Positions 16,066 to 43,104 of a DNA stretch of 64,000 nucleotides are shown here, one piece after another. The notes under the pieces are model-generated. The model had not been told where the DNA came from. It made no database searches and worked only from the letters and a program-made list of their open reading frames with translations. The stretch lies in contig JBMNVW010000001.1 in NCBI GenBank assembly GCA_050947035.1, positions 48,967 through 112,966 of the forward strand, given 5' to 3'. Source of the DNA: Patescibacteria group bacterium (GTDB lineage Bacteria > Patescibacteriota > Microgenomatia > 0-14-0-10-38-17). Within the stretch, counting starts at the first letter, position 1, and every line of letters begins with the position of its first letter. Made by a program: the position numbers and the translations under genes.

Positions 16066-16470
16066 CTAGATAATAATAACAATAATCCGAAAGAGAGTAA
16101 AAAAAGATAAAAAAGAAAAAACAACTGAGGCCCACATGAGAACCTGAACCAAAAAGGGTCGATCAAAAAAAAGCCCGCTTAAAATAAAATTCAACAAACT
16201 AATAAAAAAAGACAGGGCCGGTAAAACTAATAATAACCAAGGAGAAGCTAATTGGGCCTCTCCCCAAGGTCGACTATAAAACAGGGGTACCTGAGGGGGC
16301 AATTTATTATAAACAACAAAAAATAATCCCACCATAAGAAAAATCAACCCCAAGCTAATAAATAGGGCCAACTTAACTGTCTTTTGGCCTAAAACAACCC
16401 CCGATAATAAGCGATTTTGAGACGACACTCTAAGTTTAGGCAAAGTCTTTTCTATTAAAATAAAAACCAA
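16066..16470 (-). CDS. Small hydrophobic membrane protein (hypothetical)
   Basis: 134 aa, about 4 TM helices; overlaps the upstream GT-C gene by 16 nt (same operon). Confidence 0.3.
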   Translation of the reverse strand: MVFILIEKTLPKLRVSSQNRLLSGVVLGQKTVKLALFISLGLIFLMVGLFFVVYNKLPPQVPLFYSRPWGEAQLASPWLLLVLPALSFFISLLNFILSGLFFDRPFLVQVLMWASVVFSFLSFFTLFRIIVIII

Positions 16471-21831: not shown

Positions 21832-21860
21832 TTGACAATCCCTCAAAAAATGCCTATACT
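21832..21860 (+). promoter_or_regulatory. Sigma-70-type promoter (TTGACA-N17-TATACT) for the pilN/pilO-like operon
   Basis: Exact -35 TTGACA (21832..21837), a 17-nt spacer, and -10 TATACT (21855..21860), 25 nt upstream of the 21885 ATG. Confidence 0.65.
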
Positions 21861-23397: not shown

Positions 23398-24807
23398 ATG
23401 GGGAGAAAAAAAAGAACAAGGACAATCCCCAGTATCGTCGGTCTATTAATCTTATCCAGTCTTGTTTTGGGTGGTGTTTATCTGACGCAAAGGTTAAAAA
23501 CAGGCCGACAGGTTTCCGCCTCCGCTCAACCGGTGTCAGTAAGGGTAGCCAATATCAAGGCTCAATCGGCCACCATATATTGGTTAACTGAAGAGCCGGC
23601 CCAGGGCAGCGTTAAAATTAATAATCAAGTTTATCTTGACGACCGAGACAAAAATCTTAACCAACCCCAAAACTATCTAACCCACTACGTCACCCTTGAC
23701 AATTTAAAGCCAGAAAAAAATTATCAATTTACTATTATTAGCCAAGGCCAAGATCATCAAGAAAATAATTTCCAATTTACTACCGCCCGCTCTTTGGCTG
23801 GTCCGACTAAAGAGGCTGATTTGGCCTTTGGCCTAGTCTTGGACCAAACAGGCCAACCCTCGTCTGGAGCCCTGGTTACTTTATCTTTAACCGGGGCGGC
23901 TAGTCTTGCCAGCCTAACCGATCAGGCCGGCTTTTGGTCTATTCCCTTAAGTACGGCTTATCAAAAAAATTTAACTAATCCAATTGATTACGACCAGGAA
24001 AAACAAATCTTGGAAATTTTTGTTGAGGCTAAAATTGGCACAGCGGCTACCGTTATCACCAATACCGGTAACGATCACCCTGTTCCCCCCATTACTATTG
24101 GCCAAACTTATGATTATTCCCAAAATCCCCCCTCTCCTAAACAACACCCCCAAGATTTCGACTGGTCAAGTCCGGAAATAAAAGAAGAAATAAATAATCA
24201 TTTTTCTCAAGAGGAACCGGCCAAAACCGAGACAACAACTCAAGAAGCAGAGAAGCTTCTTCTTGATATTGACAACCCTCAAGAAGGAGAAACTGTTCTT
24301 ACTACTCGACCAAAATTTTCCGGTCAAGGACCGGCCAATCAAAAAATTAAAATTACCCTAGAATCGGAAAAAAAGTTTGAAGAAGAGGTGGCTGTTTCTT
24401 CTTTTGGCTCCTGGCAATGGACCCCGCCGGAGGGCCTTGCCCCCGGCCAACATACCATTACTGTTGAATATTACGATGATAATAATCTTCTTCAAACTAT
24501 CTCTCGAACTTTTGTTGTCCAAGCCGCCAGCGCTTCTCCTTCGCCAACCCCAATTACCCCCCTGCCAACCAGACCAGCCAATACCCCAACCCCAACTCCA
24601 AAACCACAAAATACAATTACCCCTTTATCATCACCAACAACAACTTTAACCAGCCAGCCTTCTCCCACTACAGTCTCTCCCATCCAAGAAGATCCCGGCC
24701 CGGAAAAAATTGTTTCCGGCAGCTTGACTCCCTTGGTCATTCTTGCTATCTTGGGTTTAGGCCTTATCTGTTTTGCGGTTAATATTTATCAAAATAAATG
24801 GCAATGA
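23398..24807 (+). CDS. Cell-surface protein with N-terminal FN3-like domain, Pro/Thr-rich stalk and C-terminal TM anchor
   Basis: 469 aa; signal/TM at the N-terminus, an FN3/purple-acid-phosphatase-N-like domain (SATIYWLTEEPAQGSV...KPEKNYQFTII), a PTPxP linker, and a C-terminal hydrophobic helix. Confidence 0.45.
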   Translation: MGRKKRTRTIPSIVGLLILSSLVLGGVYLTQRLKTGRQVSASAQPVSVRVANIKAQSATIYWLTEEPAQGSVKINNQVYLDDRDKNLNQPQNYLTHYVTLDNLKPEKNYQFTIISQGQDHQENNFQFTTARSLAGPTKEADLAFGLVLDQTGQPSSGALVTLSLTGAASLASLTDQAGFWSIPLSTAYQKNLTNPIDYDQEKQILEIFVEAKIGTAATVITNTGNDHPVPPITIGQTYDYSQNPPSPKQHPQDFDWSSPEIKEEINNHFSQEEPAKTETTTQEAEKLLLDIDNPQEGETVLTTRPKFSGQGPANQKIKITLESEKKFEEEVAVSSFGSWQWTPPEGLAPGQHTITVEYYDDNNLLQTISRTFVVQAASASPSPTPITPLPTRPANTPTPTPKPQNTITPLSSPTTTLTSQPSPTTVSPIQEDPGPEKIVSGSLTPLVILAILGLGLICFAVNIYQNKWQ

Positions 24808-26171
24808 TACCACCTAAGCCCCAAAAACCACCCCTACCACCGAAACCCGACCAAAAACCCTTAAAGGTTAACACTAAAACCGCTAACATTAATCAACCAA
24901 AAGAAGGAAAAACTTCCTCCTCCCAAAACCAAAAAAGAAAAAATATTTTTATAATTGTGGCCCTTATTCTTTTGGCGGCGGCGGCCATAGCCGGAGCCTT
25001 CTTCCTGCTTCAAGAAAGGCAAGATATTAGAAAAGCGGCCGCCCCATCAGATCTACCCTCATGTGATAATTACACGACAACCCGTTGCTATGGTGAATGT
25101 GAGGGATGTATAGAATATGAAATTTGCGAAATTGACGGAGGAGGTTGGTGCCGAAATCGTCTAATTAATCCTGATTCTCCCCGGTGCGGCCCCGATTGTG
25201 GTGAGGATAGCGGTGGTGGTGATGATGGTGGAAGTGGCGACGAAGAAGCCCAAACTTGCTCACCAGAAAATCCGGGAGCAGAAAACAGCTGGTGTGTTAG
25301 CCAACACAGTCAGGAAACCAAAGAAAATGCTACTTGGTCTTGCGAACCGAATAGCCCGGATTCCGGCGATGACGGCTGCTTGCAAATTTGCCAATCCGGC
25401 TACGTTTGGGAAAGCGATTTTAGCAAATGTATAAAAACCGCCGGAGAATCGGGCCAGCTAATTTGTCAAAGAATTAACAACCACGAAATCAAAATTACCA
25501 ACAATACGGGCACGACTATTCCTTATGAGAAAATTGTCTTCCGCGGCTGCCCCTATGATAGTGCTGATTGCCAAGGCAGTCAATATCGAACCGAATATGT
25601 CCAGCCCTCAATTAATACCGGCCAGACTAAAACCGAATCCACCGCCCCAGCCTATTGCGAAACAATCCAGCTTGATATTAAGAGTCTTTCTTCCCAATAC
25701 TCCTGCCTTACTTCTGAGGGCCAACCTTGGGACGGAGGAGTCGCTTTTGCCATTGATCATCATTGGGACGAAACCTGCGAAGAAGATGAACCCCCAACAC
25801 CAACAGAACCAGAACCCACTATTACTCAACCCGAATATAGTTGCAACTGTCATACGATAAAAATTTACGATCAAGATAAAAACCTAATCAACGCTGACAA
25901 TCTAGAAAATTTAAGGGCCGGCGATCTAATTTATATTGGCGTTGTTGCCAACAACGGCTATCCCAATTACCCGGTTACCAAGGCCCAGATCCGGGTTAAT
26001 CGCAATTACTGGCTCGAACAAGACGAAACAACGGAAAAAATTGATCACGACCATCCGGCCCATCTAGTGGAATTTATTAAGCCCTACACAATCCCTGACG
26101 GTATTTTAAACTTTAAGGTTGAAGCAGAAGTTTATCTTGATGCCCCGGGCGATCTTGGGGGCTGGTTATAA
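24798..26171 (+). CDS. Cys-rich surface protein with N-terminal signal anchor (hypothetical)
   Basis: 457 aa, Pro-rich cytoplasmic head, one TM helix, about 30 Cys in the extracellular part. Confidence 0.4.
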   Translation: MAMIPPKPQKPPLPPKPDQKPLKVNTKTANINQPKEGKTSSSQNQKRKNIFIIVALILLAAAAIAGAFFLLQERQDIRKAAAPSDLPSCDNYTTTRCYGECEGCIEYEICEIDGGGWCRNRLINPDSPRCGPDCGEDSGGGDDGGSGDEEAQTCSPENPGAENSWCVSQHSQETKENATWSCEPNSPDSGDDGCLQICQSGYVWESDFSKCIKTAGESGQLICQRINNHEIKITNNTGTTIPYEKIVFRGCPYDSADCQGSQYRTEYVQPSINTGQTKTESTAPAYCETIQLDIKSLSSQYSCLTSEGQPWDGGVAFAIDHHWDETCEEDEPPTPTEPEPTITQPEYSCNCHTIKIYDQDKNLINADNLENLRAGDLIYIGVVANNGYPNYPVTKAQIRVNRNYWLEQDETTEKIDHDHPAHLVEFIKPYTIPDGILNFKVEAEVYLDAPGDLGGWL

Positions 26172-26177
26172 GTTATT

Positions 26178-26909
26178 ATGACAATTAAAAAATTCTTTAA
26201 AACTATTGCTATTGTTCTTTCGGTCCTTTCCCTTTTAGGACTAACGGTTTTTTTGGCTTATAAAATCCATCAAACCCGGCAGGAAAGCCTGGCCCCCACC
26301 GAGCCGGAAGCGGTGAGTCAGGACTGTACCCTAGAATTTAGCATTAAGCCGGCCCCGGTAGAACCGGAATGTTATCAAACCTGTGACCTTGATAATGACC
26401 TTTGTCCTGATGGTCTAGCCTGCCAAGAAGTCGATGGAAGCCCGGTTTGTGTTAATCCCGATTGTCCGGAAGAGGAAGATTGCCTTTGTCCGGAACCTAT
26501 TCCTGAATGCTATCAAACCTGTGACCTTGATAATGATCTCTGCGCTGGCGATTTAGTTTGCCAAGAAGTCGATGGAAGCCCGGTTTGTGTTAATCCCGAT
26601 TGTCCGGAAGAGGAAGATTGCACCTGCCCGGGGGAACCAACCGCCACTCCCACCCCCACCGCTACTCCGACTCCAACCGCTACCGCTACTCCTTCCCCAA
26701 CAGTAACTCCTACTCCCACTTCTCAACCAGAAGCCACTACTACCCCTGGCCAAGATGAGCCCACCCAAAAACCAGCCACCGTTGCTCAGACTACTCCTAC
26801 CAGTCCACCCCCAACAACCCTACCGGAAGCTGGCAGTATCTTGCCTACTTTGGGAGTAATTTTGGGCGGGTTAACCCTGGCTGCTCTAGGCTTCTTTTTC
26901 GTCTTTTAA
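26178..26909 (+). CDS. Surface protein with 2 x 46-aa Cys-rich tandem repeat, TP-rich linker and LPEAG sorting-signal-like C-terminus
   Basis: 243 aa; a repeat unit ECYQTCDLDNDLC..CQEVDGSPVCVNPDCPEEEDC.CP occurs twice, then TPTPTATPTPTAT, then LPEAG followed by a hydrophobic helix at the extreme C-terminus. Confidence 0.5.
   Translation: MTIKKFFKTIAIVLSVLSLLGLTVFLAYKIHQTRQESLAPTEPEAVSQDCTLEFSIKPAPVEPECYQTCDLDNDLCPDGLACQEVDGSPVCVNPDCPEEEDCLCPEPIPECYQTCDLDNDLCAGDLVCQEVDGSPVCVNPDCPEEEDCTCPGEPTATPTPTATPTPTATATPSPTVTPTPTSQPEATTTPGQDEPTQKPATVAQTTPTSPPPTTLPEAGSILPTLGVILGGLTLAALGFFFVF
26367..26642 (+). repeat. Tandem 138-bp near-identical direct repeat inside the CDS (2 units)
   Basis: Units 26367..26504 and 26505..26642 are about 90% identical at the nucleotide level. 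Confidence 0.85.
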
Positions 26910-26921: not shown

Positions 26922-28145
26922 ATGACCAAGAAAAAAATCGCTATTGTCGGCGGCGGTATTACCGGTTTATATCTTGGCTACCGATTAGGCGCCAAAAACA
27001 AAGTAACTATCTTTGAGAAAAAAAAAGCCCTCGGCGGACTGTTATCGAGTTTTTCTCTAGGCAATAACGGTTGGGCCGTTGATAATTTCTACCACCACTT
27101 TTTTCCCTCCGATAAAAATTTAATCAGCCTCCTAAAAGAACTTTCCTTACCATACTCTTTTAGTAAACCAACCAGCGCCATTTGGCATAACGGAAAAATT
27201 AGCCGCTTTTCTTCCCCCGCTGATTTAATTGCTTTTCCCAACCTTGGTCTTATTAATAAACTGCGCTTTGGGGCAACCATCGCCTTGGCAAAATTAATTC
27301 CTAATTATCACCTAATCCCCGATCAAAAAACAAAAAAGATTTTTTTACCCCTTGGCGGTAAAAAAGCCTATCAGGTGGTTTGGGAACCGTTAATGAGGGG
27401 CAAGTTTGGTCCCAAAAGCGAGCAAATATCGGCCATTTGGCTTTGGGCCAGAATCAAAAAAAGATCAGCCCGTCTTGGCTATCCTAAGGGAGGATTTATT
27501 ACCCTAAACCAAAAATTAGCCCAAGAAATAATTAATCAGGGCGGGCAAATTAAAACAAAAAATAAAATAAGCCAAATAAAGCAGCTGGAAAATTTTGACC
27601 AGATTATTTTCACCACTCCCAAAGCCGTCTTCAACCAAATTACCAAGCAAAAAAGGACCGATAACATTGACTATTTAGCCAGCCTTAACTTGGTTCTATC
27701 TGGAAAAGAACCTATTCTTAATAACAATCTTTACTGGCTTAGCATTGCCGATGCCTCCTTTCCTTTTGTGGCCGTTGTCAACCAGGCCGGATTAGTTGAT
27801 AAAAAAAATTACCATAATCTTTACCCGACCTATATCGGTGGCTACTACCAGCAAGACGATCCCTTATTGGCCGCTTCACCTCAGGAAATTTTGGCCCGAT
27901 TTGCTCCTTTTATTAAAAAAATTAACCCCCGCTTTGAAGAAAAAAATTTTCAAGCAAAAATAACTAAATACCGCTGGGCCCAACCGATCGTCGAGCCGGG
28001 CTACCAAAAAAAACGCCCCGCCTTTAAAACTAAATGGCCCAATACCTATCTGGTTAATATGGCCCAAATTTACCCTTGGGACAGGGGGGTTAATTATGCC
28101 ATTTTTCTAGCCGATCAATTCTTGAAAACAGTTGCTTTTGGATAG
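26922..28145 (+). CDS. FAD/NAD(P)-binding oxidoreductase (amine-oxidase / protoporphyrinogen-oxidase-like fold)
   Basis: 407 aa; N-terminal Rossmann dinucleotide motif IAIVGGGITGLYLGYRL...E....GG. Confidence 0.6.
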   Translation: MTKKKIAIVGGGITGLYLGYRLGAKNKVTIFEKKKALGGLLSSFSLGNNGWAVDNFYHHFFPSDKNLISLLKELSLPYSFSKPTSAIWHNGKISRFSSPADLIAFPNLGLINKLRFGATIALAKLIPNYHLIPDQKTKKIFLPLGGKKAYQVVWEPLMRGKFGPKSEQISAIWLWARIKKRSARLGYPKGGFITLNQKLAQEIINQGGQIKTKNKISQIKQLENFDQIIFTTPKAVFNQITKQKRTDNIDYLASLNLVLSGKEPILNNNLYWLSIADASFPFVAVVNQAGLVDKKNYHNLYPTYIGGYYQQDDPLLAASPQEILARFAPFIKKINPRFEEKNFQAKITKYRWAQPIVEPGYQKKRPAFKTKWPNTYLVNMAQIYPWDRGVNYAIFLADQFLKTVAFG

Positions 28146-28169
28146 TTAATTAGTTTAGAATAAGGCTAA

Positions 28170-29081
28170 ATGAACAACCTTAAGGCCGTAATCACCTCCC
28201 TAAGGCCCTATCAGTGGATTAAAAATTTAGCTATTTATTCGGCGATTCTTTTTACTGGTCATCTTTTTGACGAAAACTATTTTCTAATCACCACCGCCGG
28301 TTTCGTAATTTTTTCTCTTCTTTCTTCAGCCTCATACTTGCTAAATGATATCGCTGATATTGCCCATGATCGGCTTCATCCAGTGAAAAAAAAGCGGCCC
28401 ATTGCCTCCGGTAAATTGCCAATAAACACCGCTTTTCAAATTTCAATTTCTCTTTTTATTTTTGGTTTAGCGGGAGCCTTTTTAATCAATAAAAATTTCT
28501 TTTTTATTTCTTTAGTTTTTTCTCTTCTTCATCTTGTCTACTCCTTTTTTCTAAAAAAACACCCCCCCCTAGATATCTTGGCTATTGCCACTTCCTTTGT
28601 TTTGCGCACCTTGGCCGGGGAAACACTAACCGGATTCCATATCCCTATCTGGTTAATCTTTTCAGTAATTTTCTTGTCTTTATTCATTGCCAGTGGTAAA
28701 AGAAGGTCGGAATTATTAAAAGAGGGCCAAGAAACCAGACCAGCTCTAAAACAATATCGCCAGGAATTGCTAAATTCTTATTTATCTATTTTTGGCACCG
28801 CCACTCTAATTTCTTATGCCCTTTTTACCTTTACCGCCTCACCACCAGACTTTAGTGGTAAGCTTTTAAGTTTTTTATTGGCCAATTATCCTAAAACTGT
28901 TGACCGAAAATGGCTAATGCTCTCTGTCCCCTTTGTCATCATCGGCCTAATGCGCTACGCTCAACTGGTCTTCTTGGTTCAAGAAGGGGAAGCACCGGAA
29001 AAAACCATCAAAGATCCTTACCTATTTCTTTCTATTTTGAGTTGGGGAGCCACTATTTTTGCCATCATTTATGTCTTCTAG
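28170..29081 (+). CDS. UbiA-family polyprenyl-phosphate 5-phosphoribosyltransferase (DPPRT-like, Rv3806c family)
   Basis: 303 aa, 8-9 TM helices. LRPYQWIKNLAIYSAIL, YLLNDIADIAHDRLHPVKKKRPIASGKL (NDxxDxxxD) and ASGKRRSELL align closely with mycobacterial decaprenyl-phosphate phosphoribosyltransferase. Confidence 0.85.
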   Translation: MNNLKAVITSLRPYQWIKNLAIYSAILFTGHLFDENYFLITTAGFVIFSLLSSASYLLNDIADIAHDRLHPVKKKRPIASGKLPINTAFQISISLFIFGLAGAFLINKNFFFISLVFSLLHLVYSFFLKKHPPLDILAIATSFVLRTLAGETLTGFHIPIWLIFSVIFLSLFIASGKRRSELLKEGQETRPALKQYRQELLNSYLSIFGTATLISYALFTFTASPPDFSGKLLSFLLANYPKTVDRKWLMLSVPFVIIGLMRYAQLVFLVQEGEAPEKTIKDPYLFLSILSWGATIFAIIYVF

Positions 29082-30675
29082 GAAAAAAGTCTTTTTCCTA
29101 ATTATTATTTTAGCTTTGGCGCTTTTCTTTCGCTTTGCTGGTCTTGATTGGGGAGGAGGCCACTATTTTCATCCTGACGAAAATAATATGGCCCAAGCCG
29201 TTCTTTCCCTAGAAAAAAATGGTCAACCCGATTTTTATGCTTATGGTCAGTTACCGCTTTTTTTGACCCTTTTTTCGGCTCGAACCTATAAACTGTTTTC
29301 TTTTATTCACCAGCAAAACCAGCTGGACTTTTCGGAGGCCATATTTTTCCTCCGCTTTTGGTCAGCAATAGCCGGAGTAACCACTGTTTTTTTGGTTTAC
29401 CTATTGGGAAAAAAACTAATTAACACCCAATCAGGGATAATGGCCGCTTTGGTTACCGCCTTTTTGCCCGGTTTAATTCAAGCCAGCCACTTCGGTACCA
29501 CCGAGTCTTATTTGGCCCTTTTCTATTTGGCAACTGCTTATTTTTCTTTAAATATTTACCAAGAAAAAAATCGCAAAAACTTCTTGTTCACCGGTTTATT
29601 TTTAGGGCTAGGACTAGCTACTAAAATATCAGCCGCTGCCTTTTTCCTCTTGCCGCTTACTGCCAGCGCTCTGGCCGGTAAAAACAAAAAAAGGCCGATA
29701 GGGGATTTAGCTAAAAATCTTTTTGCTGGCGGTCTTCTTGCCGTTATCACTTGGCTGATCTTTTCTCCTTTTTTAATCATTAACTTTTCCCAAACTCTAA
29801 CCACCCTAAAGTATGAAATTGCTGTTGCCAAAGGGGAAGTTATTCCTTTTTATACTCGACAATTCCTAAACACTATCCCTTTTTGGTTTCAGGCCAAAAG
29901 GGTCTTGCCCTTTTTGCTGGGCTGGCCGGTTTTTATTATTTACTTATTGGGAATAGTTAGATTAGTGAAAGAAAAAAAGAAGGCTCCTCTCTGGTTGATT
30001 ATTCTTTTACCAAGTTTGATTTTCTTTCTTTATCAGGGACAGTTATTTGTTAAGTGGACTCGTTTTATGGTACCGATCGTCCCTGTTTTTCCACTGCTGT
30101 TTGCTAAAGCAATTAATAAAATATCTAAGCCACTACAATATATTGTACTAATAGTTTCTTGCTTGCCGGGACTTTTTTTCTTCGACTTAGTTTATAATCA
30201 ACCCAATATTCGCTGGCAATTTTCCTCTTGGGCTAAAGAAAATCTACCTAAAAATTCACTTATCTTATCCGAATCAGGCAACGTTATTAATCTTCCCATT
30301 AATACTAACCATCAAGTCATTAACTTTGATTTTTATCAACTAGAAGAGGGGCAAAATTTAAAACTCCTTTGTCAACATCTTGAAGGGGCTGATTATATTC
30401 TTGTTCCCAGCCGAAGAGTTTTTGCCAACCACCAAGAGAACCAATTTCCCAATATTGCCGACTACTACCAAAAGCTTTTTTCCAACCAATTAGGTTTCTC
30501 TTTAGTAAAAACCTTTTCTCCTACTAGTCGTTATCCTTTAGCTAATCTTTATTATCAAAAAAGCGAAATCAGGGCTGAGGAGACCTGGACTGTCTTTGAT
30601 CATCCCACCATTAGGCTGTATCAAAAAAATAAACCCCTATCAACAGAGGAATATTGTCACATTTTAACCTATTAA
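29059..30675 (+). CDS. GT-C fold membrane glycosyltransferase, paralog 1 (PMT/ArnT-like, HPDE motif)
   Basis: 538 aa polytopic protein; first extracytoplasmic loop GGHYFHPDENNMAQAV. The start may be the internal Met at 29071. Confidence 0.6.
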   Translation: MPSFMSSRKKVFFLIIILALALFFRFAGLDWGGGHYFHPDENNMAQAVLSLEKNGQPDFYAYGQLPLFLTLFSARTYKLFSFIHQQNQLDFSEAIFFLRFWSAIAGVTTVFLVYLLGKKLINTQSGIMAALVTAFLPGLIQASHFGTTESYLALFYLATAYFSLNIYQEKNRKNFLFTGLFLGLGLATKISAAAFFLLPLTASALAGKNKKRPIGDLAKNLFAGGLLAVITWLIFSPFLIINFSQTLTTLKYEIAVAKGEVIPFYTRQFLNTIPFWFQAKRVLPFLLGWPVFIIYLLGIVRLVKEKKKAPLWLIILLPSLIFFLYQGQLFVKWTRFMVPIVPVFPLLFAKAINKISKPLQYIVLIVSCLPGLFFFDLVYNQPNIRWQFSSWAKENLPKNSLILSESGNVINLPINTNHQVINFDFYQLEEGQNLKLLCQHLEGADYILVPSRRVFANHQENQFPNIADYYQKLFSNQLGFSLVKTFSPTSRYPLANLYYQKSEIRAEETWTVFDHPTIRLYQKNKPLSTEEYCHILTY

Positions 30676-30696
30676 ATAAAATTAATAATCAACTAA

Positions 30697-32361
30697 ATGA
30701 CTAACAAAAAAAAACTTCTTTTTTTCTTAATCATTATTTTGTTAGCCGGTTTTTTTCGGTTTTTGGGTTTAAGTTGGGACCAAGGCCAAATGCTTCATCC
30801 CGACGAAAGGTTCTTAATGATGGTAACCAACAACCTTGATTGGCCCCAAAACTGGTCTAGTTTTTTTAATACCGATCTTTCTCCCCTTAATCCCCATAAT
30901 CGAGGTTACGATTTTTTTGTTTATGGCACTTTGCCGATTTTTTTGCTTAAAAAATTGGCCAATATTTTTGGCATAAGCGGCTATCAAGACCTTCTTCTGT
31001 TAGGTCGATCTTTGTCGGCCACTTTTGATCTTGCTTCTGTGGTTTTGGTCATCCTTATCGGCCAAAAACTTTTCCCCAAAAAATCGATCGGTCTTTGGGC
31101 CGGTCTTTTCTACGCTATTAGCGTTTTACCTATGCAACTGGCTCATTTTTACACCACGGATGTCTTTTTAAACTTTTTTTTACTAGTCGCTTTTTATTGG
31201 CTGGTGCTTTTTAGCCAAAAGGGAAAGGTCGGCCCTTTAATCTTGTCGGCAGTTTTTTGGGGAATGGCAGCCGCCTGCAAAATTACCGCCCTATTTTTTG
31301 GCCCCGTCTTAGCCGCCGTAGTTTTTTTCCAAAATAAAAAAAGATTTTTATCTAAACTGATAATTGCTCTTTTGGCTTTTTTTATTACCTGGCGCCTTTT
31401 CCAGCCCTATGCTTTTACCGGCCTTTTTACCCCTAATCAAAAATTCTTGGCTAATCTTGCCTCACTTAAAAATTTTAGCCGACCCGATTCTCTCTATCCT
31501 CCCTCTGTCCAGTGGCTAAACACCCGGCCGATTCTTTATTCTTTAAAAAACTTGACCCTTTGGGGCCTAGGGATACCGCTATTCGTTATTATAATTACCA
31601 GCCTATTCTTTTTCCCTCTTTATCTTAAGAAGAAAAAAATATTTTCCCAAGAGATAATCTATTATTGTCTTTATTTTTGGCCCCTGGCTCTTTTCTTTTA
31701 CCAAGCTTGCCAGTTTGTTAAACCAATGCGCTATCTTCTGCCTATTTATCCCTTTTGGTCAATTATTGGCGCCTGGGGGATAAGAAAAATTATAAATAAT
31801 AATGGCCAAGTTGGTTCTAAAATAGTTTGGGTTTTGGCTGGGTTAGCCTTTATTTGGCCCTTAAGTTTTATCAGTATTTATCTTCGCCCCCATTCCCGCC
31901 TCCAAGCCTCAAGCTGGATTTATGATCACATTAGCCCCGGCTCAACTTTATCTTGTGAGCACTGGGATGACTGTTTGCCCTTATCGGTCGAGAGCAAAAG
32001 CTGGCAGAGTCAGCCTTACCAAATCGAAACTCTTTCTCTTTATGATCCAGAAAGCCCGGAAAAATGGCAGAAAATAAATCACCAGCTGGAAAAAATCGAC
32101 TATTTAATCTTGTCTTCTAATCGTCTTTGGGGCAGTATTCCCAAAAACCCCAAGCGATATCCCAAAACAACCAAATTCTATCAAGATTTGTTTCGAGATA
32201 AACTGCAATTTAAAAAAGTGGCCGAGTTTACCTCTTTGCCCTGTTTTCCTCCCGGCCTGGACTGGTTTTGTTTTAATGACCAGGGGGCGGATGAATCTTT
32301 TACTGTTTACGACCACCCTCAAGTTATTATTTATCAAAAAGCCAATCATAGCAGTCAATAG
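30697..32361 (+). CDS. GT-C fold membrane glycosyltransferase, paralog 2 (PMT/ArnT-like, HPDE motif)
   Basis: 554 aa; N-terminus LLFFLIIILLAGFFRFLGLSWDQGQMLHPDERF parallels the upstream paralog. Confidence 0.6.
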   Translation: MTNKKKLLFFLIIILLAGFFRFLGLSWDQGQMLHPDERFLMMVTNNLDWPQNWSSFFNTDLSPLNPHNRGYDFFVYGTLPIFLLKKLANIFGISGYQDLLLLGRSLSATFDLASVVLVILIGQKLFPKKSIGLWAGLFYAISVLPMQLAHFYTTDVFLNFFLLVAFYWLVLFSQKGKVGPLILSAVFWGMAAACKITALFFGPVLAAVVFFQNKKRFLSKLIIALLAFFITWRLFQPYAFTGLFTPNQKFLANLASLKNFSRPDSLYPPSVQWLNTRPILYSLKNLTLWGLGIPLFVIIITSLFFFPLYLKKKKIFSQEIIYYCLYFWPLALFFYQACQFVKPMRYLLPIYPFWSIIGAWGIRKIINNNGQVGSKIVWVLAGLAFIWPLSFISIYLRPHSRLQASSWIYDHISPGSTLSCEHWDDCLPLSVESKSWQSQPYQIETLSLYDPESPEKWQKINHQLEKIDYLILSSNRLWGSIPKNPKRYPKTTKFYQDLFRDKLQFKKVAEFTSLPCFPPGLDWFCFNDQGADESFTVYDHPQVIIYQKANHSSQ

Positions 32362-33457
32362 TTTTTTGATAAGAAAAAATCTCTTCAGCCTTGCTTTTAT
32401 CAACGGCTGTTTTAGGACCACTTAAAAGGCTAACAATTTTTTTAGCTAAATCGGAAGAATCGCCCACCAAGAAAGTCTTGCCAAAACCGGTTTTTTCAAC
32501 CGGCTCTCTTACTCCAGGTAAATTAGCCGCCACTACCGGCCTACCAAAAAGCATCGCCTCAACTTGAACAATACCAAAAGATTCCAGAGTATCATCGCTT
32601 GGCAAAACCAAAAGGTCAATGACTTGATAAAAAGCGGCCAATTGTTTTTGGTCAAGAGGGCCTAAAAAAAGAATATTTTCGGAATATTTTTTAATTTCTG
32701 GGGCAATTTCTTGGGCAAAATCTTCGCCAATAATTTTCTTTGGACCGGCTAAAATAATCTTAAAAGAGGCCAGCTCTTTTTTTAAAATGGGAATCGCCTT
32801 TAGCAAGATCGGCAAACCCTTTTGGCGGGCAATTCTACCCGAAAAACCGATCCGATATTTTACTCCCGACAACTTTTGAGACAATTCTTTTTTATAAGCC
32901 TTGTCAGGCTGGGCAACGACTACCGGCGGATAGGTAAAAACCAACTTTTGCCTAAAGCGCGATAAAAACCGAGAATGATTAGCATAGTCTTTGGTATAAA
33001 CCACGATTTTATCAGCCAGACTGGCCGTTATAATCTGCGACAGGTTAACCACCCCTTCCGACAGACGATTAAAAAATCCCGGCCAGCCGGAAAGATCAGT
33101 ATGATGAGTCAAAATTAGCCTTTTTTTTAAAATTTTGGCCCAAAAGGCTAAAAAAATTGCCTCAAATTGAGGCAAGTGGCAATTGACTACATCGGCTTCT
33201 TTTACTAGTCGATAAGAAGAAAAGGGAAAAAGGGGCATTATTACTCCCTTGCCCAAACAAAAAGCTACCCAGTCCCGAATAATTGTTAAACCGGCTTTTT
33301 TTTCTCTCTTAGGCAAATCTGGTTGGTGCCGAGAAGTTAAAATCGTAACTTGATGGCCTCGGGCTAACAAGCCTTGGGCTAACCTTTTAGCATAAATTGT
33401 TACCCCGGAAATATTGGGCTCAAAGTAGGTTAAAGAGATTAAAATTTTCATCGTCAA
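32327..33457 (-). CDS. Glycosyltransferase family 4 (GT-B fold)
   Basis: 376 aa; C-terminal EAMLFGRPVVAANLPGVREPVE (E-x7-E) motif. Confidence 0.8.
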   Translation of the reverse strand: MTMKILISLTYFEPNISGVTIYAKRLAQGLLARGHQVTILTSRHQPDLPKREKKAGLTIIRDWVAFCLGKGVIMPLFPFSSYRLVKEADVVNCHLPQFEAIFLAFWAKILKKRLILTHHTDLSGWPGFFNRLSEGVVNLSQIITASLADKIVVYTKDYANHSRFLSRFRQKLVFTYPPVVVAQPDKAYKKELSQKLSGVKYRIGFSGRIARQKGLPILLKAIPILKKELASFKIILAGPKKIIGEDFAQEIAPEIKKYSENILFLGPLDQKQLAAFYQVIDLLVLPSDDTLESFGIVQVEAMLFGRPVVAANLPGVREPVEKTGFGKTFLVGDSSDLAKKIVSLLSGPKTAVDKSKAEEIFSYQKTIDCYDWLFDK

Positions 33458-33941
33458 CCCAATAAAACTTCGTTTGGGGAAGGTTCTCTTTCAAGAAAGA
33501 AACAATCTGCTCATCATCCTCCAAATAAATATCTAAATTAAGCTTTTTAATAATCTTTTCTTTAAAAAGATGAGGAGGCAAATTTTCTTCATTAAGGAAA
33601 ATACCACCAATGCCATTGTTTATTCCCCATCTATTAAGCCATTTTTGGGTTTCTTTTTTCAAAAAACCATAACGGCCGGAAATTAAATAAACTTCAACAT
33701 CTGGGTCCTGAGCCAGCTTTTTTAAAAAGGTCAAATTTTCTTTTATCGGCGGCCGAAAAAAATAATGATGAGATAATTTTCTTAAGTGTTGCTGAAATTT
33801 GCTAGTGGGAAAACGATAAACCAACCCCTCTTTTCCACCGCGAAAAAGCCTCTCTAAAAACTTCTTTGGTACTAAGGGAGGGCGGCCAATAATCACCCCA
33901 TCCAAATCAAAACCAATTTTTATTTTTTTTCTTTGGGCCAT
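33420..33941 (-). CDS. HAD-superfamily hydrolase/phosphatase-like protein
   Basis: 173 aa; motif I FDLDGVII near the N-terminus. Confidence 0.55.
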   Translation of the reverse strand: MAQRKKIKIGFDLDGVIIGRPPLVPKKFLERLFRGGKEGLVYRFPTSKFQQHLRKLSHHYFFRPPIKENLTFLKKLAQDPDVEVYLISGRYGFLKKETQKWLNRWGINNGIGGIFLNEENLPPHLFKEKIIKKLNLDIYLEDDEQIVSFLKENLPQTKFYWVDDENFNLFNLL

Positions 33942-34020: not shown

Positions 34021-34118
34021 CCACGGGCAAAGCCCGTGGTTCTTGTGTTTCGCCCTGAGCACTCGTCTTCGGCGAGTGAACTATTGATATCGGCTTTATC
34101 CATGGGTATAACCCATGG
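34021..34118. other. Cluster of three GC-rich perfect hairpins (candidate structured RNA / terminator array)
   Basis: CCACGGGC-AAA-GCCCGTGG (34021..34039), CACTCG-TCTTCGG-CGAGTG (34060..34078, UUCG-type loop), CCATGGGT-ATA-ACCCATGG (34100..34118), in an otherwise AT-rich spacer. Confidence 0.5.
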
Positions 34119-37300: not shown

Positions 37301-37375
37301 GGCCCAAGCAGAAAAAGCCCCAAAAAACAACCCGCCCAAAAAAATTGATAAAAACAATAAGAATTTTCTAGTCAT
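34301..37375 (-). CDS. Large secreted Cys/Gly/Ser/Thr-rich protein (1024 aa; hypothetical adhesin/toxin-like)
   Basis: Signal peptide (FGAFSAWA|QSP), then more than 60 Cys in CxxC/CC-rich modules (CGNGICE, CSTPNCPGNKPEDICC), a Pro/Thr linker and a long C-terminal beta-rich region. Codon composition is visibly more GC-rich than neighbouring genes. Confidence 0.5.
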   Translation of the reverse strand: MTRKFLLFLSIFLGGLFFGAFSAWAQSPYCGNGICEIEDYVYCSPPSDCYVGSSCSTPNCPGNKPEDICCLPNADCPEGWDTWDYAYDAQCKVTRVDDLGFECSWEWQYRDCSAADRCEGSSNVAYACDGDPSGSNDTGKILAGWCSTSCVTGCANGGWYKTCCQVSGVVQSGAQLTGNRTSCTNGGGCSSGARVWGTSCDGCLGSVDAYGTWTVGPCGGVPTTAPTSAPGDPTPTTGSCAVGAQWCTNPDQCAASGCTVADTPYGACAIEGDICCSCPSSQEEAARIKVNIVGTEHEVGEPVTIQVYQEPANTDTPNDDCYYASIEVKVNNPGGIVLPPDYVVCEAGGFKDESVDNGCSWGGDEGRCRTCIWNTNNVQAAPDDRAYELPVRQYPAGPYTAGVYYGGHSDPVCKDESADASDDTTLWGESEIYFTASQTCSYGGECVPLDLTSGDYIDYGIWTDNEWVSNFDWGGFLRVWRTEYGDPKSTGSSWTCYLRGSDSCPDGCAGIEGYNASNFLGTSNDDNDDYSVSLDIQNLDSDREYLVSVYGYGVNAHAPGFDCESQTRPFMKLESGSLSTVDYMIVDKECDWQEKTMRIVPQDGTITATLTSKGTKHGCGGYLQQSAFENFSICECPEPISPPTAPSLSQPPDGAQIRIDDVSLVWTHDGAWGVNSAGNNNSFEVFVNEVPSGTPEFSALGSYQTVDENTSSVGLDVSYDTRYCWGVRADNGALTADSEVWCFETLSPVGWFQGQSGNVYGHNGVSSLVSSSVSDWARYFSLDSGDFGSSAIIASPQGTAKEFGDALAATKSNPDNDDWLVEADLSRLADRYTYNYFASLLDLNQANEEIVWVEGGEGDAVVNAINGNPSKEVFVYQEPGGDGTLLFTDSADFSGRKVIVLFDGDVEVSLEDGEQLAPADFFALIASGSINFTGNTGDTSGVYIGTASALGVFVAGDQITTSVSSSRFIGRGIFFARNGFSLGRDLGSNNETLSAEFFRFDPKYFFTAPKVFRYSPQIWQELAP

Positions 37376-41085: not shown

Positions 41086-43104
41086 ATGATTAATGATTTT
41101 TTAATTACTTTTTACTGGTGGTTTTTGCTCTTTGCTTTAGGATTAATTTTTTTGCCGATCAGCCAAAAATTATTTAAAAATTTCTTTGACCGGGGCTATT
41201 TGCTCTCCAAAACCATCGCCATTGCTCTTCTTTCCTGGCCAATGTTTTTGCTGGCCCACTTAAAAATTCTACCCTTTAGCCAAATTGGGATCTTATTTCT
41301 TTTGATTTTAGCAATGGCGATTAATATTTTTTTGGCCCAAAAAAAAGCTTTCTTAGATAAAAAACTCATTAAAACCATTATTTTCGAAGAGGGGTTTTTC
41401 TTACTGGCCCTGCTTTCCTGGTCTTATATCCGCAGCCTAAGACCCGACATCGCCGGTTTAGAAAAATTTATGGACTTTGGCTTTATGAAAAGCTTAGTTA
41501 ACAGCCGTTTCTTGCCCCCGACCGATATGTGGTTTGCTGGCCAAACTATTAATTATTATTATTATGGTCATTTTATCGCCGCCCTTTTAACTAAATTCTC
41601 CGGCTTAACGGCTGATATTACCTATAATTTAATGATCGCCACCCTTTTTGCCCTAACTACCACCGGAGTTTTTTCTCTCATTGCCAGTCTTCTTGCCAAG
41701 ATAACCAAAAATAAAAAGACGATTATTTTTGCCGCCCTTATTGGCGCCCTAATTATTGGCCTGGGTAGTAATTTTCACACCCCCTATCATCTTTTAAAAG
41801 ACGGTTTCCAAAATTATTGGTATCCCAATGCCACCCGCTATATCGGTTATGATCCTCCCACCAATGACAAAACTATTCACGAATTTCCTGCTTATTCTTT
41901 TATTGTCGCCGACCTGCATGGTCATGTTTCCGGACTACCATTAGTAATTTTATTTATTGGCCTGGCCTGGTCGATTTTTCAAGAAAAGAAAACCGCTTGG
42001 ACAAAACTTGTTTTTTTGGGTTTTCTTTTAGGACTTGTCTATATGACTAATGCCTGGGATTTGCCAATTTATCTTTTGCTCTTGGGGCTGGTTTTATTAG
42101 TTAAAAAACTAGCCAAAGAAAAGACTTGGCAAGGAAAAAAAACTTTCTTTTCTATCCTATCAATTATTCCACCCCTCCTGGTTGTTATCGGCCTATTTTT
42201 TCTAACCTCCCTGCCTTTTAATCTTAACTTTGACTCCATGGCCGAAGGCGTTGGCCTGGTGCATAGTCAAACTCCCATTTTTCAGCTTATTATTCTTTGG
42301 GGAGCTTTTATGTTTTGGGCAATAAGTTTTCTTGTTTTTCTAAAGCTTTTTCCCCAAACTAAAAACGCTGACCTTTTCATTCTTAGCCTAACCTTAACTG
42401 CCCTAATTTTAATCATCTTGCCGGAAATAATTTATATCAAAGATATTTACGGAGCGGATTTTTACCGGGCTAACACCATGTTTAAGTTCACTTTTCAGGC
42501 CTATTTAATGTTAACGATTGTCTCCGGCTATAGTCTTATTCGCATCAGCCAACAATTAAAAACACCAATCAAAATTATTTTCTTAACAATTAGTTTTGTT
42601 TTAATTTCTGGGGTATTAATTTATCCGGCTTACTCTATTCCAGGTTTTTACGGCAAGATCAGTCTTAAAAATTTTCAAGGCCTGTCAGGACAAAACTTTT
42701 TGGCTCAACGCTACCCAGAAGATTATCAAGCAATTGTCTGGATTGAAAAAAATCTCCCCCAAGAAGCAGTCATTTTGGAGGCCGCCGGAGACAGCTATAC
42801 TGATTATGGCCGAGTGTCCACCTTTACCGGCCGGCCCACTATTCAGGGCTGGATCGTTCATGAATGGCTTTGGCGGGGAGGTTACGATTTACCGGCCAAA
42901 AGGGCTAGCCAAGTTAAGCAGGTCTATCAAGAGGCTAATATTAAACTGGCCCAAAATATTCTAAACCAATATTCGGTCGATTATGTTTTCTTTGGTAAAC
43001 TAGAACAAGAAAAATATCCTAACGCCGATTTTGATCGCCTAAGCCTTCTGGGAAAGCCTGTCTTTAGAGCCGGGGAAACAGTAGTCTTTGAAGTAGGGAA
43101 ATAG
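41086..43104 (+). CDS. Large polytopic membrane protein of the DUF2298 / Chlor_Arch_YYY family (putative GT-C-like)
   Basis: 672 aa, more than 12 TM helices, motif GQTINYYYYGHF (YYY motif). Confidence 0.55.
   Translation: MINDFLITFYWWFLLFALGLIFLPISQKLFKNFFDRGYLLSKTIAIALLSWPMFLLAHLKILPFSQIGILFLLILAMAINIFLAQKKAFLDKKLIKTIIFEEGFFLLALLSWSYIRSLRPDIAGLEKFMDFGFMKSLVNSRFLPPTDMWFAGQTINYYYYGHFIAALLTKFSGLTADITYNLMIATLFALTTTGVFSLIASLLAKITKNKKTIIFAALIGALIIGLGSNFHTPYHLLKDGFQNYWYPNATRYIGYDPPTNDKTIHEFPAYSFIVADLHGHVSGLPLVILFIGLAWSIFQEKKTAWTKLVFLGFLLGLVYMTNAWDLPIYLLLLGLVLLVKKLAKEKTWQGKKTFFSILSIIPPLLVVIGLFFLTSLPFNLNFDSMAEGVGLVHSQTPIFQLIILWGAFMFWAISFLVFLKLFPQTKNADLFILSLTLTALILIILPEIIYIKDIYGADFYRANTMFKFTFQAYLMLTIVSGYSLIRISQQLKTPIKIIFLTISFVLISGVLIYPAYSIPGFYGKISLKNFQGLSGQNFLAQRYPEDYQAIVWIEKNLPQEAVILEAAGDSYTDYGRVSTFTGRPTIQGWIVHEWLWRGGYDLPAKRASQVKQVYQEANIKLAQNILNQYSVDYVFFGKLEQEKYPNADFDRLSLLGKPVFRAGETVVFEVGK

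Follow-up and report, generated by a model that had tools for sequence, protein, structure and literature searches.

A predicted PRPP-dependent, lipid-carrier glycosylation gene cluster of the three-component pentofuranose type in a Microgenomates genome

The window (the whole 64-kb stretch of DNA that was analysed, from an uncultured Microgenomates bacterium of the Patescibacteria) contains a compact cluster of six genes (Table 1), all of which lie where the first-pass annotation had placed them and on the same strands. The start of the first GT-C gene overlaps the end of the UbiA-fold gene, and the 3′ end of the GT4 gene overlaps the second GT-C gene by 35 bp. The cluster follows pilN/pilO and is co-directional with them. 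A strong promoter-like site is found 5′ of pilN and the gaps from there through GT-C2 are tiny; the surface-protein genes and the forward-strand cluster genes through GT-C2 form one predicted transcription unit starting at pilN.

Table 1. Positions of the cluster genes and of other features in the window.
Feature	Position	Strand	Basis
MurJ (possible flippase-like gene)	11436..13067
Family-less 134-aa 3-TM protein (possible flippase-like gene)	16066..16470
Strong promoter-like site	21832..21860
Three secreted/anchored surface proteins (one fn3/Big_13, two Cys-rich)	23398..26909	+	fn3, Big_13 domains
NF005560-family FAD flavoprotein (PPO/phytoene-desaturase/UGM fold)	26922..28145	+	Amino_oxidase/NAD_binding_8; NCBIfam NF005560
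Predicted UbiA-fold polyprenyl-phosphate 5-phosphoribosyltransferase (DPPRS/PPPRS, Rv3806c homologue)	28170..29081	+	profile scores, 8j8j match, conserved site residues
GT-C membrane glycosyltransferase 1, PMT_2 type	29059..30675	+	PMT_2 61 bits, PMT 48.5 bits
GT-C membrane glycosyltransferase 2, GT-C1 paralogue	30697..32361	+	PMT_2 38.7 bits
GT4 Leloir glycosyltransferase, convergent	32327..33457	-	Glycos_transf_1 89 bits, Glyco_transf_4 62 bits
Small HAD-fold phosphatase, candidate for 5-phosphate removal from polyprenyl-P-ribose-5-P	33420..33941	-	motifs, AF2 fold
DUF2298/Chlor_Arch_YYY polytopic membrane protein	41086..43104	+	PF10060 342 bits, TIGR03662 506 bits

The UbiA-fold protein had been called a DPPRT homologue. 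In the NCBIfam profile search DPPRT models top all UbiA profiles (NF008978, 196 bits; NF008977, 191 bits; a third, 149 bits) and the HAD-PPPRS fusion model scores 161 bits; the best UbiA model of any other kind reaches 47 bits. The top score is marginally under the NCBI curated DPPRT cutoff (196 vs 207 bits). PDB entry 8j8j (Rv3806c) matches over the full length [residues 4–299, E 1.6e-38], with 30% identity. The structure of Rv3806c defines the residues that contact the pyrophosphate, ribose and 5′-phosphate of PRPP and Mg (PMC10994848). These contacts are kept in the window's protein and in 120 CPR homologues, with R22, K28, Y70, N73, D77, K87, R90, Y138 and K143 identical throughout; the exceptions, Q135H, Y157F and K208P, are tolerated changes. 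The two motifs noted at first pass, NDxxDxxxD and GKRRSEL, are present (the former as NDIADIAHD). Sequence comparison supports a place in the DPPRT/PPPRS clade, as proposed, and not in the quinone/heme prenyltransferase clade, and strongly supports transfer of ribose-5-phosphate from PRPP to polyprenyl phosphate as the predicted activity.

Both GT-C proteins exceed the gathering score for PMT_2/PMT. They are indeed tandem paralogues (28% identity over the full length, E 1e-47) and each carries HPDE in its first extracytoplasmic loop, the Asp being conserved in at least 90% of 14 homologous GT-Cs. A GT-C1 profile built from these 14 homologues matches PMT (9i5k, E 7e-7), PIG-M, AglB/STT3 and, very weakly, ArnT (E 0.2); these are PMT/OST-type matches, and the profile gave none to Emb/Aft. 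The convergent gene encodes a GT4 enzyme, as annotated, an accessory whose presence in the cluster varies: among relatives it occurs only in L034, and a DUF362 gene takes the same position in L001, L002, L032 and L043.

By sequence, the only family match of the smallest protein is to HAD_SAK_2, below threshold. The HAD motifs DxD, S/T, K and D (D12, D14, S/T88, K127 and D142) are invariant in 46 homologues, and a Foldseek search with the AF2 model (pLDDT 90) retrieves HAD phosphatases exclusively, including 5′(3′)-deoxyribonucleotidases and 7shg, a ribofuranosyltransferase with a phosphoribose-phosphatase (PRP) domain. The protein shows no particular resemblance to the PRP domains already known. 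Fold and motifs bear out the earlier identification as a HAD phosphatase; the role in 5-phosphate removal we infer from these and from conserved linkage. The gene is conserved in L001–L003, L032, L034 and L043, the last being a cluster that lacks UbiA.

Conservation of the cluster in relatives, on which the first-pass reading depended, is evident. The arrangement flavoprotein–UbiA–GT-C (one to four copies) with HAD and DUF2298 is found in three Shapirobacteria loci (L001–L003), and the same flavoprotein–UbiA–GT-C block recurs in L032, L033 and L034, where UbiA is only ~50% identical; GT-C1 is immediately 3′ of UbiA in both sets. Because this order recurs in several Microgenomates lineages, the cluster is taken as functional and not as chance synteny. 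The DUF2298/YYY protein, correctly recognized at first pass, belongs to the same conserved block (its gene is directly 3′ of HAD or flavoprotein in L001, L003, L030, L034, L042 and L043) and is here set apart by inserted surface-protein genes. A WecA-like initiating transferase (PF00953 match) and a QxxRW GT2 (QYKRW) are nearby, as reported, while the GT-C assigned to 16455–17948 could not be confirmed: it matches no family model, and hhalign to the GT-C profile gives only 57% probability.

The three co-directional genes upstream of the flavoprotein include Pro/Thr-rich stretches (residues 371–440 of p469 and 143–224 of p243), and from these linkers their products may be candidate acceptors. 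p469, p457 and p243 are syntenic in L001–L003; in L032 and L042–L044 the gene ahead of the flavoprotein is of the fn3/Big_13 kind. The window holds no pilin gene, and the order S20–pilN–pilO–fn3 protein is lineage-wide; what looks like a connection with pili may reflect nothing more than lineage synteny. Neither the cluster nor the window has a MATE, SMR or GtrA flippase, MurJ and a small 3-TM protein being the only possible flippase-like genes in the window.

The flavoprotein matches NF005560 with 345 bits (cutoff 252), a family whose NCBIfam title is ‘hypothetical protein’. This uncharacterized protein forms the cluster's hub and is the interesting lead. Its partners vary by genome (UbiA alone, GT-Cs alone, or both): of 29 genome loci, 21 have it 5′ of UbiA, and it also adjoins GT-Cs or DUF2298 without UbiA. 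Elsewhere the family occurs in fusions with GtrA, with LPG_synthase_TM (an MprF-type flippase domain) and with a methyltransferase. It is also present in GT2/GtrA/GT-C systems that have no UbiA at all, and L045 combines a GT2, a GtrA::flavoprotein with the NF005560 domain and a 10-TM protein. A proteobacterial plasmid cassette [methyltransferase (MT), HAD-UbiA (PRK08238), DprE1-like, DprE2-like, SDR epimerase, NF005560, GtrA], seen in Burkholderia stagnalis, Agrobacterium salinitolerans and Rhodobacteraceae SC52, shares with the cluster a PPPRS and the flavoprotein (23% identity, full length, E 1e-41). Unlike the cluster it has DprE1/E2-like genes, a further SDR, a GtrA flippase and a phosphatase fused to UbiA. 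This cassette is likewise uncharacterized. In such operons translational coupling joins the NF005560 member (548 bits) to GtrA, and DprE1-like (319 bits) and DprE2-like (192 bits) genes accompany it. The family is therefore not simply a substitute for DprE1 or DprE2 and would do something additional; the first-pass annotation was right about an FAD/NAD-binding protein, and its suggestion of a DprE1 stand-in is not supported.

The cluster probably specifies PRPP-dependent glycosylation outside the cytoplasm by way of a lipid carrier, a system of the ‘three-component pentofuranose’ type, with ribofuranose or a derivative as the donor sugar; lipid-linked pentofuranose glycosylation, as first suggested, is the best reading of the genes. 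The UbiA-fold enzyme would move ribose-5-phosphate from PRPP to polyprenyl phosphate and the HAD protein would strip the 5-phosphate to give polyprenyl-P-ribofuranose. The flavoprotein's substrate would then be the lipid-linked sugar, still on the cytoplasmic side and near the flipping step. After translocation by a flippase, the two PMT_2-type GT-C paralogues, probably joined by DUF2298, would pass the pentose on to extracytoplasmic acceptors, speculatively the Pro/Thr-rich surface proteins of the pilN-led unit.

What the flavoprotein does is where other readings diverge. It might be a non-homologous DprE1 analogue that oxidizes the 2′-OH of polyprenyl-P-ribose ahead of reduction to polyprenyl-P-arabinofuranose for arabinosyl-GT-Cs. 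Its tight linkage to the DPPRS gene and the need of a DprE1-type step for an FAD oxidase fit this, as does the known d-Araf glycosylation of Pseudomonas aeruginosa pilins by a GT-C (PMC11127046), given the pilN/pilO genes upstream. The window has no DprE1-type (VAO-fold) oxidase, DprE2-type SDR or other reductase, related CPR clusters have no DprE2-like or other SDR reductase, and the family occurs both alongside DprE1/E2-like genes and in UbiA-less systems; we regard this route as unlikely. Arabinofuranose is not indicated, and the ‘DPA-like’ label is not supported. Equally doubtful is that the flavoprotein saturates or desaturates a polyprenyl unit, so that GT-C donors would have a dolichol-like carrier of their own. 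A hub common to PRPP- and GT2-fed GT-C systems could act on their shared lipid, and in L030 the flavoprotein gene is divergent beside a cis-prenyltransferase (UppS) with other isoprenoid genes near. The tight co-directional coupling there, however, is to DUF2298, and methyltransferase fusions (SAM-dependent) and recurrent pairing with SDR epimerases/dehydratases suit sugar chemistry better. The fold does not discriminate between candidate substrates; the likelier reaction is oxidation, epimerization or isomerization of the sugar rather than a change to the lipid tail.

Doubt could also attach to UbiA itself, as a merely syntenic gene whose product serves another purpose while the GT-Cs use, for example, a polyprenyl-P-hexose from a GT2 encoded elsewhere. 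The flavoprotein/GT-C/HAD/DUF2298 block does occur without UbiA (L042–L044), Roizmanbacteria-type loci have flavoprotein and UbiA beside recA without GT-Cs, and the lineage-wide gene order upstream points the same way. What ties UbiA to the GT-Cs is consequently the flavoprotein hub, together with analogy. Against mere synteny, in at least four divergent lineages UbiA sits exactly between flavoprotein and GT-C, the frames overlapping or all but touching; DPPRS and PMT-type GT-C pairs recur in Archaea, Bacteroidota and Bacillota (Haloterrigena, Lactococcus and Chondrinema have DPPRS, GT39/PMT-type GT-C and phosphatase/epimerase/GtrA modules, in agreement with the experimentally defined system of Kelly et al.); and, as far as is known, DPPRS products serve only as GT-C donors (PMC11127046). 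We give this alternative little weight. Least credible by far is that UbiA has nothing to do with glycosylation and prenylates an aromatic compound or heme, as enzymes of the menaquinone, ubiquinone and heme O types do: the protein matches the generic fold (PF01040) and some source annotations name homologues ‘4-hydroxybenzoate polyprenyltransferase’, but quinone, heme and chlorophyll models stay at or below 47 bits, and the phosphoribose-specific K28 and Y70 are conserved together with the K/R cluster that stands where true prenyltransferases have their second Mg site.

Three-component extracytoplasmic pentofuranose systems have been defined experimentally and called widespread, with ORF15–ORF14–ORF12 of Citrobacter youngae O1/O2 as an exemplar and a Caudoviricetes phage as one example of a separately encoded phosphatase (Kelly et al., PNAS 2024; PMC11127046). 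The cluster, read as a pentofuranose system, has in common with them a UbiA-fold PPPRS acting on PRPP, a HAD-type phosphatase step, at least one GT-C with an extracytoplasmic catalytic loop and accessory enzymes able to diversify the pentose; in its separate phosphatase gene it resembles the phage. It differs in lacking a MATE, SMR or GtrA flippase gene, in a HAD of a different, CPR-restricted subfamily, in PMT_2-like GT-Cs that may not belong to GT136 and in an NF005560 flavoprotein in place of DprE1/E2 or the ORF13 SDR. The acceptor is probably not O antigen, since CPR bacteria are not known to have LPS. No paper in the literature searched ties this pathway to Patescibacteria/CPR, in line with the earlier remark that it was undescribed in the lineage; the system type itself was described in 2024 (PMC11127046), and the Microgenomates cluster adds a lineage and a variant to a kind already known.

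The mycobacterial decaprenyl-phospho-arabinose pathway (Rv3806c, Rv3807c, DprE1, DprE2, Rv3789, Aft/Emb) starts with a homologue of the cluster's UbiA and follows the same logic, a lipid-linked pentofuranose donor for GT-Cs outside the membrane. The cluster differs in having no DprE1 (VAO fold), DprE2 or GtrA-type Rv3789 homologue, a HAD in place of the PAP2 phosphatase and GT-Cs whose profile does not match Emb/Aft. In TfpW pilin O-arabinofuranosylation of P. aeruginosa a DPPRS homologue feeds lipid-linked pentofuranose to a GT-C acting on Ser/Thr of a pilus protein; the cluster is similarly co-directional with pilN/pilO and Pro/Thr-rich surface-protein genes, whereas the TfpW system uses DprE1/E2 homologues. 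Three-component hexose systems of GtrA–GtrB–GtrC type, one of them the L045 set with its GtrA::flavoprotein, resemble the proposed pathway in flipping a lipid-linked monosaccharide for use by a GT-C, and their donor synthase is a nucleotide-sugar GT2 as opposed to a PRPP-dependent UbiA enzyme.

The UbiA-fold protein at the centre of the cluster is a homologue of the polyprenyl-phosphate 5-phosphoribosyltransferases (DPPRS, also DPPRT; Rv3806c family), predicted from its sequence to convert PRPP and polyprenyl phosphate to polyprenyl-phosphate-ribose-5-phosphate. The first motif (NDxxDxxxD) reads NDIADIAHD at residues 59–67 and the second (GKRxxEL) GKRRSEL at residues 176–182. The NCBIfam DPPRT models NF008978, NF008977 and NF008976 give 196.1, 191.2 and 149 bits (curated cutoffs 207, 234 and 474) and PRK08238, which models the HAD–PPPRS fusion, gives 161 bits; DPPRT scores are four-fold higher than the 47 bits of the best non-DPPRT UbiA subfamily model. 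As they fall under the NCBI curated cutoffs (narrowly for 207 and 234), the protein is a divergent member of the family. A sequence search of the PDB aligns residues 4–299 with Mycobacterium tuberculosis Rv3806c (8j8j, E = 1.6e-38), while true prenyltransferases reach only E = 1.7e-8. In the Rv3806c structure, pyrophosphate is contacted by R22, K87, R90, K143 and Y138, Mg by N73 and D77, ribose by N73 and Q135, and the 5'-phosphate by K28, Y70 and Y157; this phosphoribose site is not conserved among true UbiA prenyltransferases (PMC10994848). Nine contact residues are identical in our protein (R12, K18, Y56, N59, D63, K73, R76, Y124 and K129) and three are replaced [Q135 by His, K208 by Pro, and Y157 by Phe, a residue also seen there in some mycobacteria (PMC10994848)]; the same pattern is found in 120 CPR homologues. 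Model scores, the Rv3806c match and the phosphoribose-site residues thus uphold the DPPRT assignment of the first-pass annotation over a place in a quinone prenyltransferase clade. The best UbiA match is named 'Microgenomates bacterium 39_7' (95% identity), and a flavoprotein identical to ours (100%) is on a 149-kb 'Patescibacteria group' contig.

All six ORFs of the cluster (26922–33941) were recovered (see table). The four forward genes are separated by tiny gaps or overlap; HAD and then GT4 are convergent on the reverse strand, the 3' end of GT4 overlapping GT-C2 by 35 bp. The organism is a Shapirobacteria-like Microgenomates CPR bacterium, and conservation was scanned with one genome per species, yielding 29 loci, nearly all from Microgenomates, whose arrangements were read from ORF calling and iterated HMMs and from Pfam-annotated contigs. 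Type A (flavoprotein, UbiA, one to four GT-Cs, DUF362 or GT4, HAD, DUF2298) is found in the window, the Shapirobacteria loci L001–L003 and the comparison loci L032, L033 and L034, with overlapping frames and UbiA identity down to about 50%; the cluster is conserved among relatives. Type B loci (Roizmanbacteria and relatives) are nrdD-nrdR-comF ... recA-recX blocks without GT-Cs, in which 1–6 kb separate UbiA from the flavoprotein upstream of it. Type C (L042–L044) runs S20, pilN, pilO, an fn3/Big_13 protein, flavoprotein and one to four GT-Cs with no UbiA in the locus; some loci have a tail of DUF362, HAD, DUF2298 and LytR, complete in L043, and L030, also of type C, has the order UppS, flavoprotein, DUF2298. 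In 21 of the 29 loci the flavoprotein gene precedes UbiA on the same strand; of the other eight, only one or two extend far enough upstream to tell. The flavoprotein, whose partner is UbiA, GT-Cs or both, is thus the hub of these loci.

Unlike GT4, the HAD-like gene and DUF2298 recur across loci. Where the window has the convergent GT4, four relatives have a DUF362 gene between the GT-Cs and HAD (56–63% identity between loci), of which the window holds no copy. DUF362 is a conceivable redox partner for the flavoprotein; in L032 a radical SAM gene stands beside it. HAD and DUF2298 (41086–43104, forward strand), adjacent in L003 and L034, are separated in the window by 34301–40951 (GC 0.43–0.45, flanks about 0.39), where surface-protein genes look to have been inserted; the products are a Cys-rich secreted protein of 1024 aa, a protein of 186 aa, a polysaccharide deacetylase and a TAT-signal protein whose N-terminus is rich in Pro and Thr. 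At 34021–34039 there is a bidirectional terminator-like hairpin. Terminator-like hairpins number 38 between 21300 and 34400, about twice the 18.8 ± 4.5 expected from shuffled sequence, most of them inside coding regions.

Coordinates of the features in the window and in comparison loci, with profile matches
Feature	Location	Strand	Matches and remarks
Flavoprotein	26922–28145	+	Amino_oxidase, NAD_binding_8, NF005560
UbiA protein	28170–29081	+	PF01040 (90 bits)
GT-C1, GT-C2	29059–30675, 30697–32361	+	both PMT_2 and PMT; PMT_2 61 and 38.7 bits (cutoff 26.1)
GT4	32327–33457	-	Glycos_transf_1, Glyco_transf_4
HAD	33420–33941	-	HAD_SAK_2, sub-threshold match only (Pfam/NCBIfam)
23S rRNA intervening-sequence protein	54015–54383		
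Tyrosine recombinase/integrase	54951–55823		
Exo_endo_phos nuclease	55809–56672		
VirD4/TraG/HerA-like ATPase	56764–59106		
DUF362 gene at GT4 position	L001 8872–9987; L002 12166–13245; L032 19528–20607; L043 12754–13833		
Six-gene cassette, alpha-/beta-proteobacterial plasmids	L035 4509–10748; L036 4371–10553; L038 4361–10528		
Cassette gene 1			HAD–UbiA fusion; PRK08238, 635 bits
Cassette gene 2			DprE1-like FAD oxidase; 319 bits
Cassette gene 3			DprE2-like SDR; 192 bits
Cassette gene 4			NAD epimerase/dehydratase
Cassette gene 5			NF005560 flavoprotein
Cassette gene 6			GtrA; start overlaps gene 5
GtrA::flavoprotein natural fusion	L045 8001–9758 (GCA_003252295.1, contig QKEV01000008.1)		

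GT-C1 and GT-C2 are true paralogues (28% identity over the whole length, E = 1e-47) with at least seven predicted TM segments. The HPDE motif lies in the first extracytoplasmic loop; its Asp (D40) is nearly invariant, with at least 90% conservation in 14 homologous GT-Cs. Since GT-C1 as a single sequence matched nothing among PDB sequences, a profile of 14 homologues was required; this found a protein O-mannosyltransferase (9i5k, E = 7e-7), PIG-M, AglB/STT3 and, very weakly, ArnT (E = 0.2). Among all PDB sequences, Emb and Aft chains are absent from the matches at E ≤ 1. Several genes reported nearby in the first-pass annotation are present: a WecA-like protein (PF00953), a GT2 whose QxxRW motif reads QYKRW, and the DUF2298 gene, which also matches TIGR03662 (Chlor_Arch_YYY). 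DUF2298 resembles neither PDB sequences nor the GT-C profile in any meaningful way, which leaves its description as GT-C-like unproven, and a literature search on it yielded nothing useful. The supposed further GT-C at 16455–17948 has no family-model match and an hhalign probability of only 57% against the GT-C profile.

A system of this kind has been shown experimentally in Citrobacter youngae, whose alpha-pentofuranose side chains are attached outside the cytoplasm: PRPP is turned into undecaprenyl-phosphate-ribofuranose by a UbiA-fold polyprenyl phosphoribose synthase fused to a HAD phosphatase, a MATE protein flips the product and a GT-C of family GT136 transfers the ribofuranose; epimerases can diversify the pentose, DprE1/E2 giving Araf and an SDR Xylf (Kelly et al., 2024; PMC11127046). 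As in that three-component system, UbiA in the window is clustered with GT-C genes, here two of PMT_2 type that follow it directly, an order kept in L001–L003 and L032–L034. The differences are a HAD that is separate and an orphan, and a locus that contains no MATE, SMR or GtrA. Annotated plasmid records confirm that modules of DPPRS with a PMT/GT39-type GT-C occur widely, accompanied by an NAD epimerase and a PHP phosphoesterase in Haloterrigena, a separate HAD-IB and GtrA in Lactococcus and DprE1/E2-like genes in Chondrinema. The cluster is therefore of a known kind and the lineage new for it; a literature search found no paper linking Patescibacteria with DPPRS. The earlier reading was right about the DPPRS homologue and, most likely, about a lipid-linked pentofuranose system. 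Its arabinose (decaprenyl-phospho-arabinose-like) label is wrong or at least unsupported: unlike the mycobacterial pathway, the 64-kb window has neither DprE1 (a PF01565-type VAO FAD oxidase) nor DprE2 (an SDR), no reductase of any kind is found there or in the related CPR clusters, and the GT-Cs have no Emb/Aft-type arabinosyltransferase match among PDB sequences. What the window holds is a variant, in a new lineage, of the kind defined in 2024, with a separate orphan HAD and neither a recognizable flippase nor DprE1/E2. The CPR episymbiotic lifestyle depends on surface structures, and to our knowledge almost nothing has been described of Patescibacteria envelopes and surface glycans; the cluster predicts a PRPP-derived pentofuranose decorating extracytoplasmic targets in many Microgenomates.

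By sequence the HAD protein is a near-orphan (59 homologues, all CPR), and its PDB matches by sequence or profile were no better than marginal (Pnkp1, E = 0.05). It keeps all four catalytic motifs (D12 and D14 of DxD, S/T88, K127 and D142), and its AF2 model (pLDDT 90) matches HAD phosphatases only, among them a Thermobacillus ribofuranosyltransferase with a phosphoribose phosphatase (PRP) domain (7shg) and 5'(3')-deoxyribonucleotidases. Alignment with hhalign to the PRP domain of a PRK08238 fusion and to the Lactococcus HAD-IB gave no specific similarity, motif I alone being aligned, so it is fold, motifs and linkage that make the protein a candidate 5-phosphate phosphatase.

The element of real interest is the flavoprotein, of PPO/PDS-type, HpnE-like fold, whose putative reaction on lipid-linked sugars is testable in cultivable Proteobacteria. 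NF005560 (PRK07233, 'hypothetical protein') matches its residues 5–404 with 345 bits (curated cutoff 252), and a literature search for PRK07233 found nothing. Searching plasmids with tblastn recovered full-length homologues in Burkholderia, Agrobacterium, Rhizobium and one Rhodobacteraceae strain; the one from Burkholderia gives 548 bits against NF005560 and aligns with ours over the full length (23% identity, E = 1e-41). A cassette of six genes is constant in the annotated examples that were inspected, those from Burkholderia, Agrobacterium and the Rhodobacteraceae strain. The gene before it varies, a methyltransferase in L035 and L036 and a hypothetical gene in L038, from the Rhodobacteraceae strain. 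Large hypothetical membrane proteins, probably GT-Cs, flank the cassette. The first-pass annotation had cast the flavoprotein as a 2'-oxidation partner; since NF005560 shares operons with a DprE1/E2-like pair, its role must be a different one. The cassette provides a cultivable model in which, as Burkholderia and Agrobacterium carry the gene, the reaction can be worked out.

An exhaustive profile search returned 1,388 representatives of the family at E ≤ 1e-30 (about 1,400 clusters at 50% identity), and fusions were surveyed in the best 150 of these 1,388. The fusions include GtrA_DPMS_TM::flavoprotein (P0447, three members on two contigs), LPG_synthase_TM (an MprF-type flippase domain)::flavoprotein, two flavoprotein::class I methyltransferase proteins and one flavoprotein with a polytopic N-terminal domain of about 400 aa. 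The GtrA fusion stands in the order methyltransferase, GT2, GtrA::flavoprotein, 10-TM protein, which is a GtrB/GtrA/GtrC-like system and has no UbiA. Four kilobases downstream of the fusion operon in L045 is a second module of SDR, GtrA, a 526-aa amine-oxidase-fold protein and GT-C. The homologue in Embleya (Actinomycetota) is accompanied by a DegT aminotransferase, GMC oxidoreductases and a GT2 that overlaps its gene by 4 bp, and no UbiA is found near it. The family is thus tied to lipid-linked sugar pathways in three ways, by linkage in CPR, by proteobacterial operons and by fusions to GtrA, an MprF-type flippase domain and methyltransferases. From the cassette, the flippase fusions and the GT2 contexts that lack UbiA, the flavoprotein belongs to lipid-linked sugar systems generally and probably acts close to the flipping step.

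As to the substrate, sugar chemistry is favoured by the methyltransferase fusions and by the recurrence of SDR partners; the fold, which resembles PDS/HpnE, and the proximity of UppS in L030 allow for a reaction on the lipid tail. A literature search turned up no relevant paper on an archaeal polyprenol reductase tied to phytoene-desaturase-type enzymes. Uncharacterized 'FAD-dependent oxidoreductases' of a Bacillus system are mentioned in a commentary on Kelly et al. (PMC11194591), and our literature search found no characterization of them; the rhizobial noeCHOP arabinosylation operon has no NF005560-type gene (PMC5080398). We tentatively propose, with rather less than even confidence in the whole, that NF005560 may be an unrecognized, widespread class acting on polyprenyl-phosphate-linked monosaccharides at the flippase step (as oxidase, epimerase or mutase), a new step common to PRPP-fed and GT2-fed three-component systems, which in Microgenomates would replace DprE1/E2 and whose modified pentofuranose would O-glycosylate Pro/Thr-rich surface or pilus-associated proteins. 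Such a reaction could lengthen the standard route to polyprenyl-phosphate sugar donors by a step.

What the model chiefly lacks is a flippase, as neither the cluster nor the 64-kb window has a MATE, SMR or GtrA protein. The only candidates in the window are MurJ (11436–13067), probably the lipid II flippase, and an unassigned 134-aa 3-TM protein (16066–16470), which has no Pfam match and no BLAST similarity to a GtrA from Agrobacterium. A strong promoter-like site (21832–21860, 11 of 12 matches) precedes pilN, and the forward-strand genes from pilN to GT-C2 follow one another with minimal gaps. The three genes just upstream of the flavoprotein (23398–26909) encode an fn3/Big_13 protein and Cys-rich secreted proteins with long Pro/Thr-rich linkers, which are typical O-glycosylation substrates of PMT-type enzymes. 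Together with the position of the fn3/Big_13 gene, kept in L032 and L042–L044, the linkers suggest that the surface proteins may be O-pentosylated, comparable with pilin arabinosylation by Pseudomonas aeruginosa TfpW. Lineage synteny could account equally for the kept position, and a search of the window for a class III signal-peptide motif turned up no pilin gene. The 243-aa protein at 26178–26909 (forward strand) has an internally duplicated Cys-rich module (ECYQTCDLDNDLC...DGSPVCVNPDCPEEEDC, twice) and ends in LPEAG and a hydrophobic tail, resembling a sortase-type sorting signal.

Elsewhere in the window, the anaerobic ribonucleotide reductase NrdD (60624–63935, reverse strand, 1103 aa) contains an intein with a LAGLIDADG homing-endonuclease domain (Intein_splicing and LAGLIDADG_3 at residues ~750–1036). 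AUA is decoded in most bacteria by a lysidine-modified CAU tRNA, a UAU tRNA-Ile being less common; here a tRNA-Ile with anticodon TAT (UAU) is encoded at 56648–56723 (reverse strand), and there are two tRNA-Met(CAT) genes (53678–53748 and 54401–54475). The segment 54015–59106 beside these tRNA genes is possibly mobile or integrated; among its genes are those tabulated for the 23S rRNA intervening-sequence protein, the recombinase, the nuclease and the ATPase. An IS200-like Y1 transposase gene (14156–14818, reverse strand) is flanked by the gene of a PEGA/SH3 surface protein and by that of the WecA-like protein.
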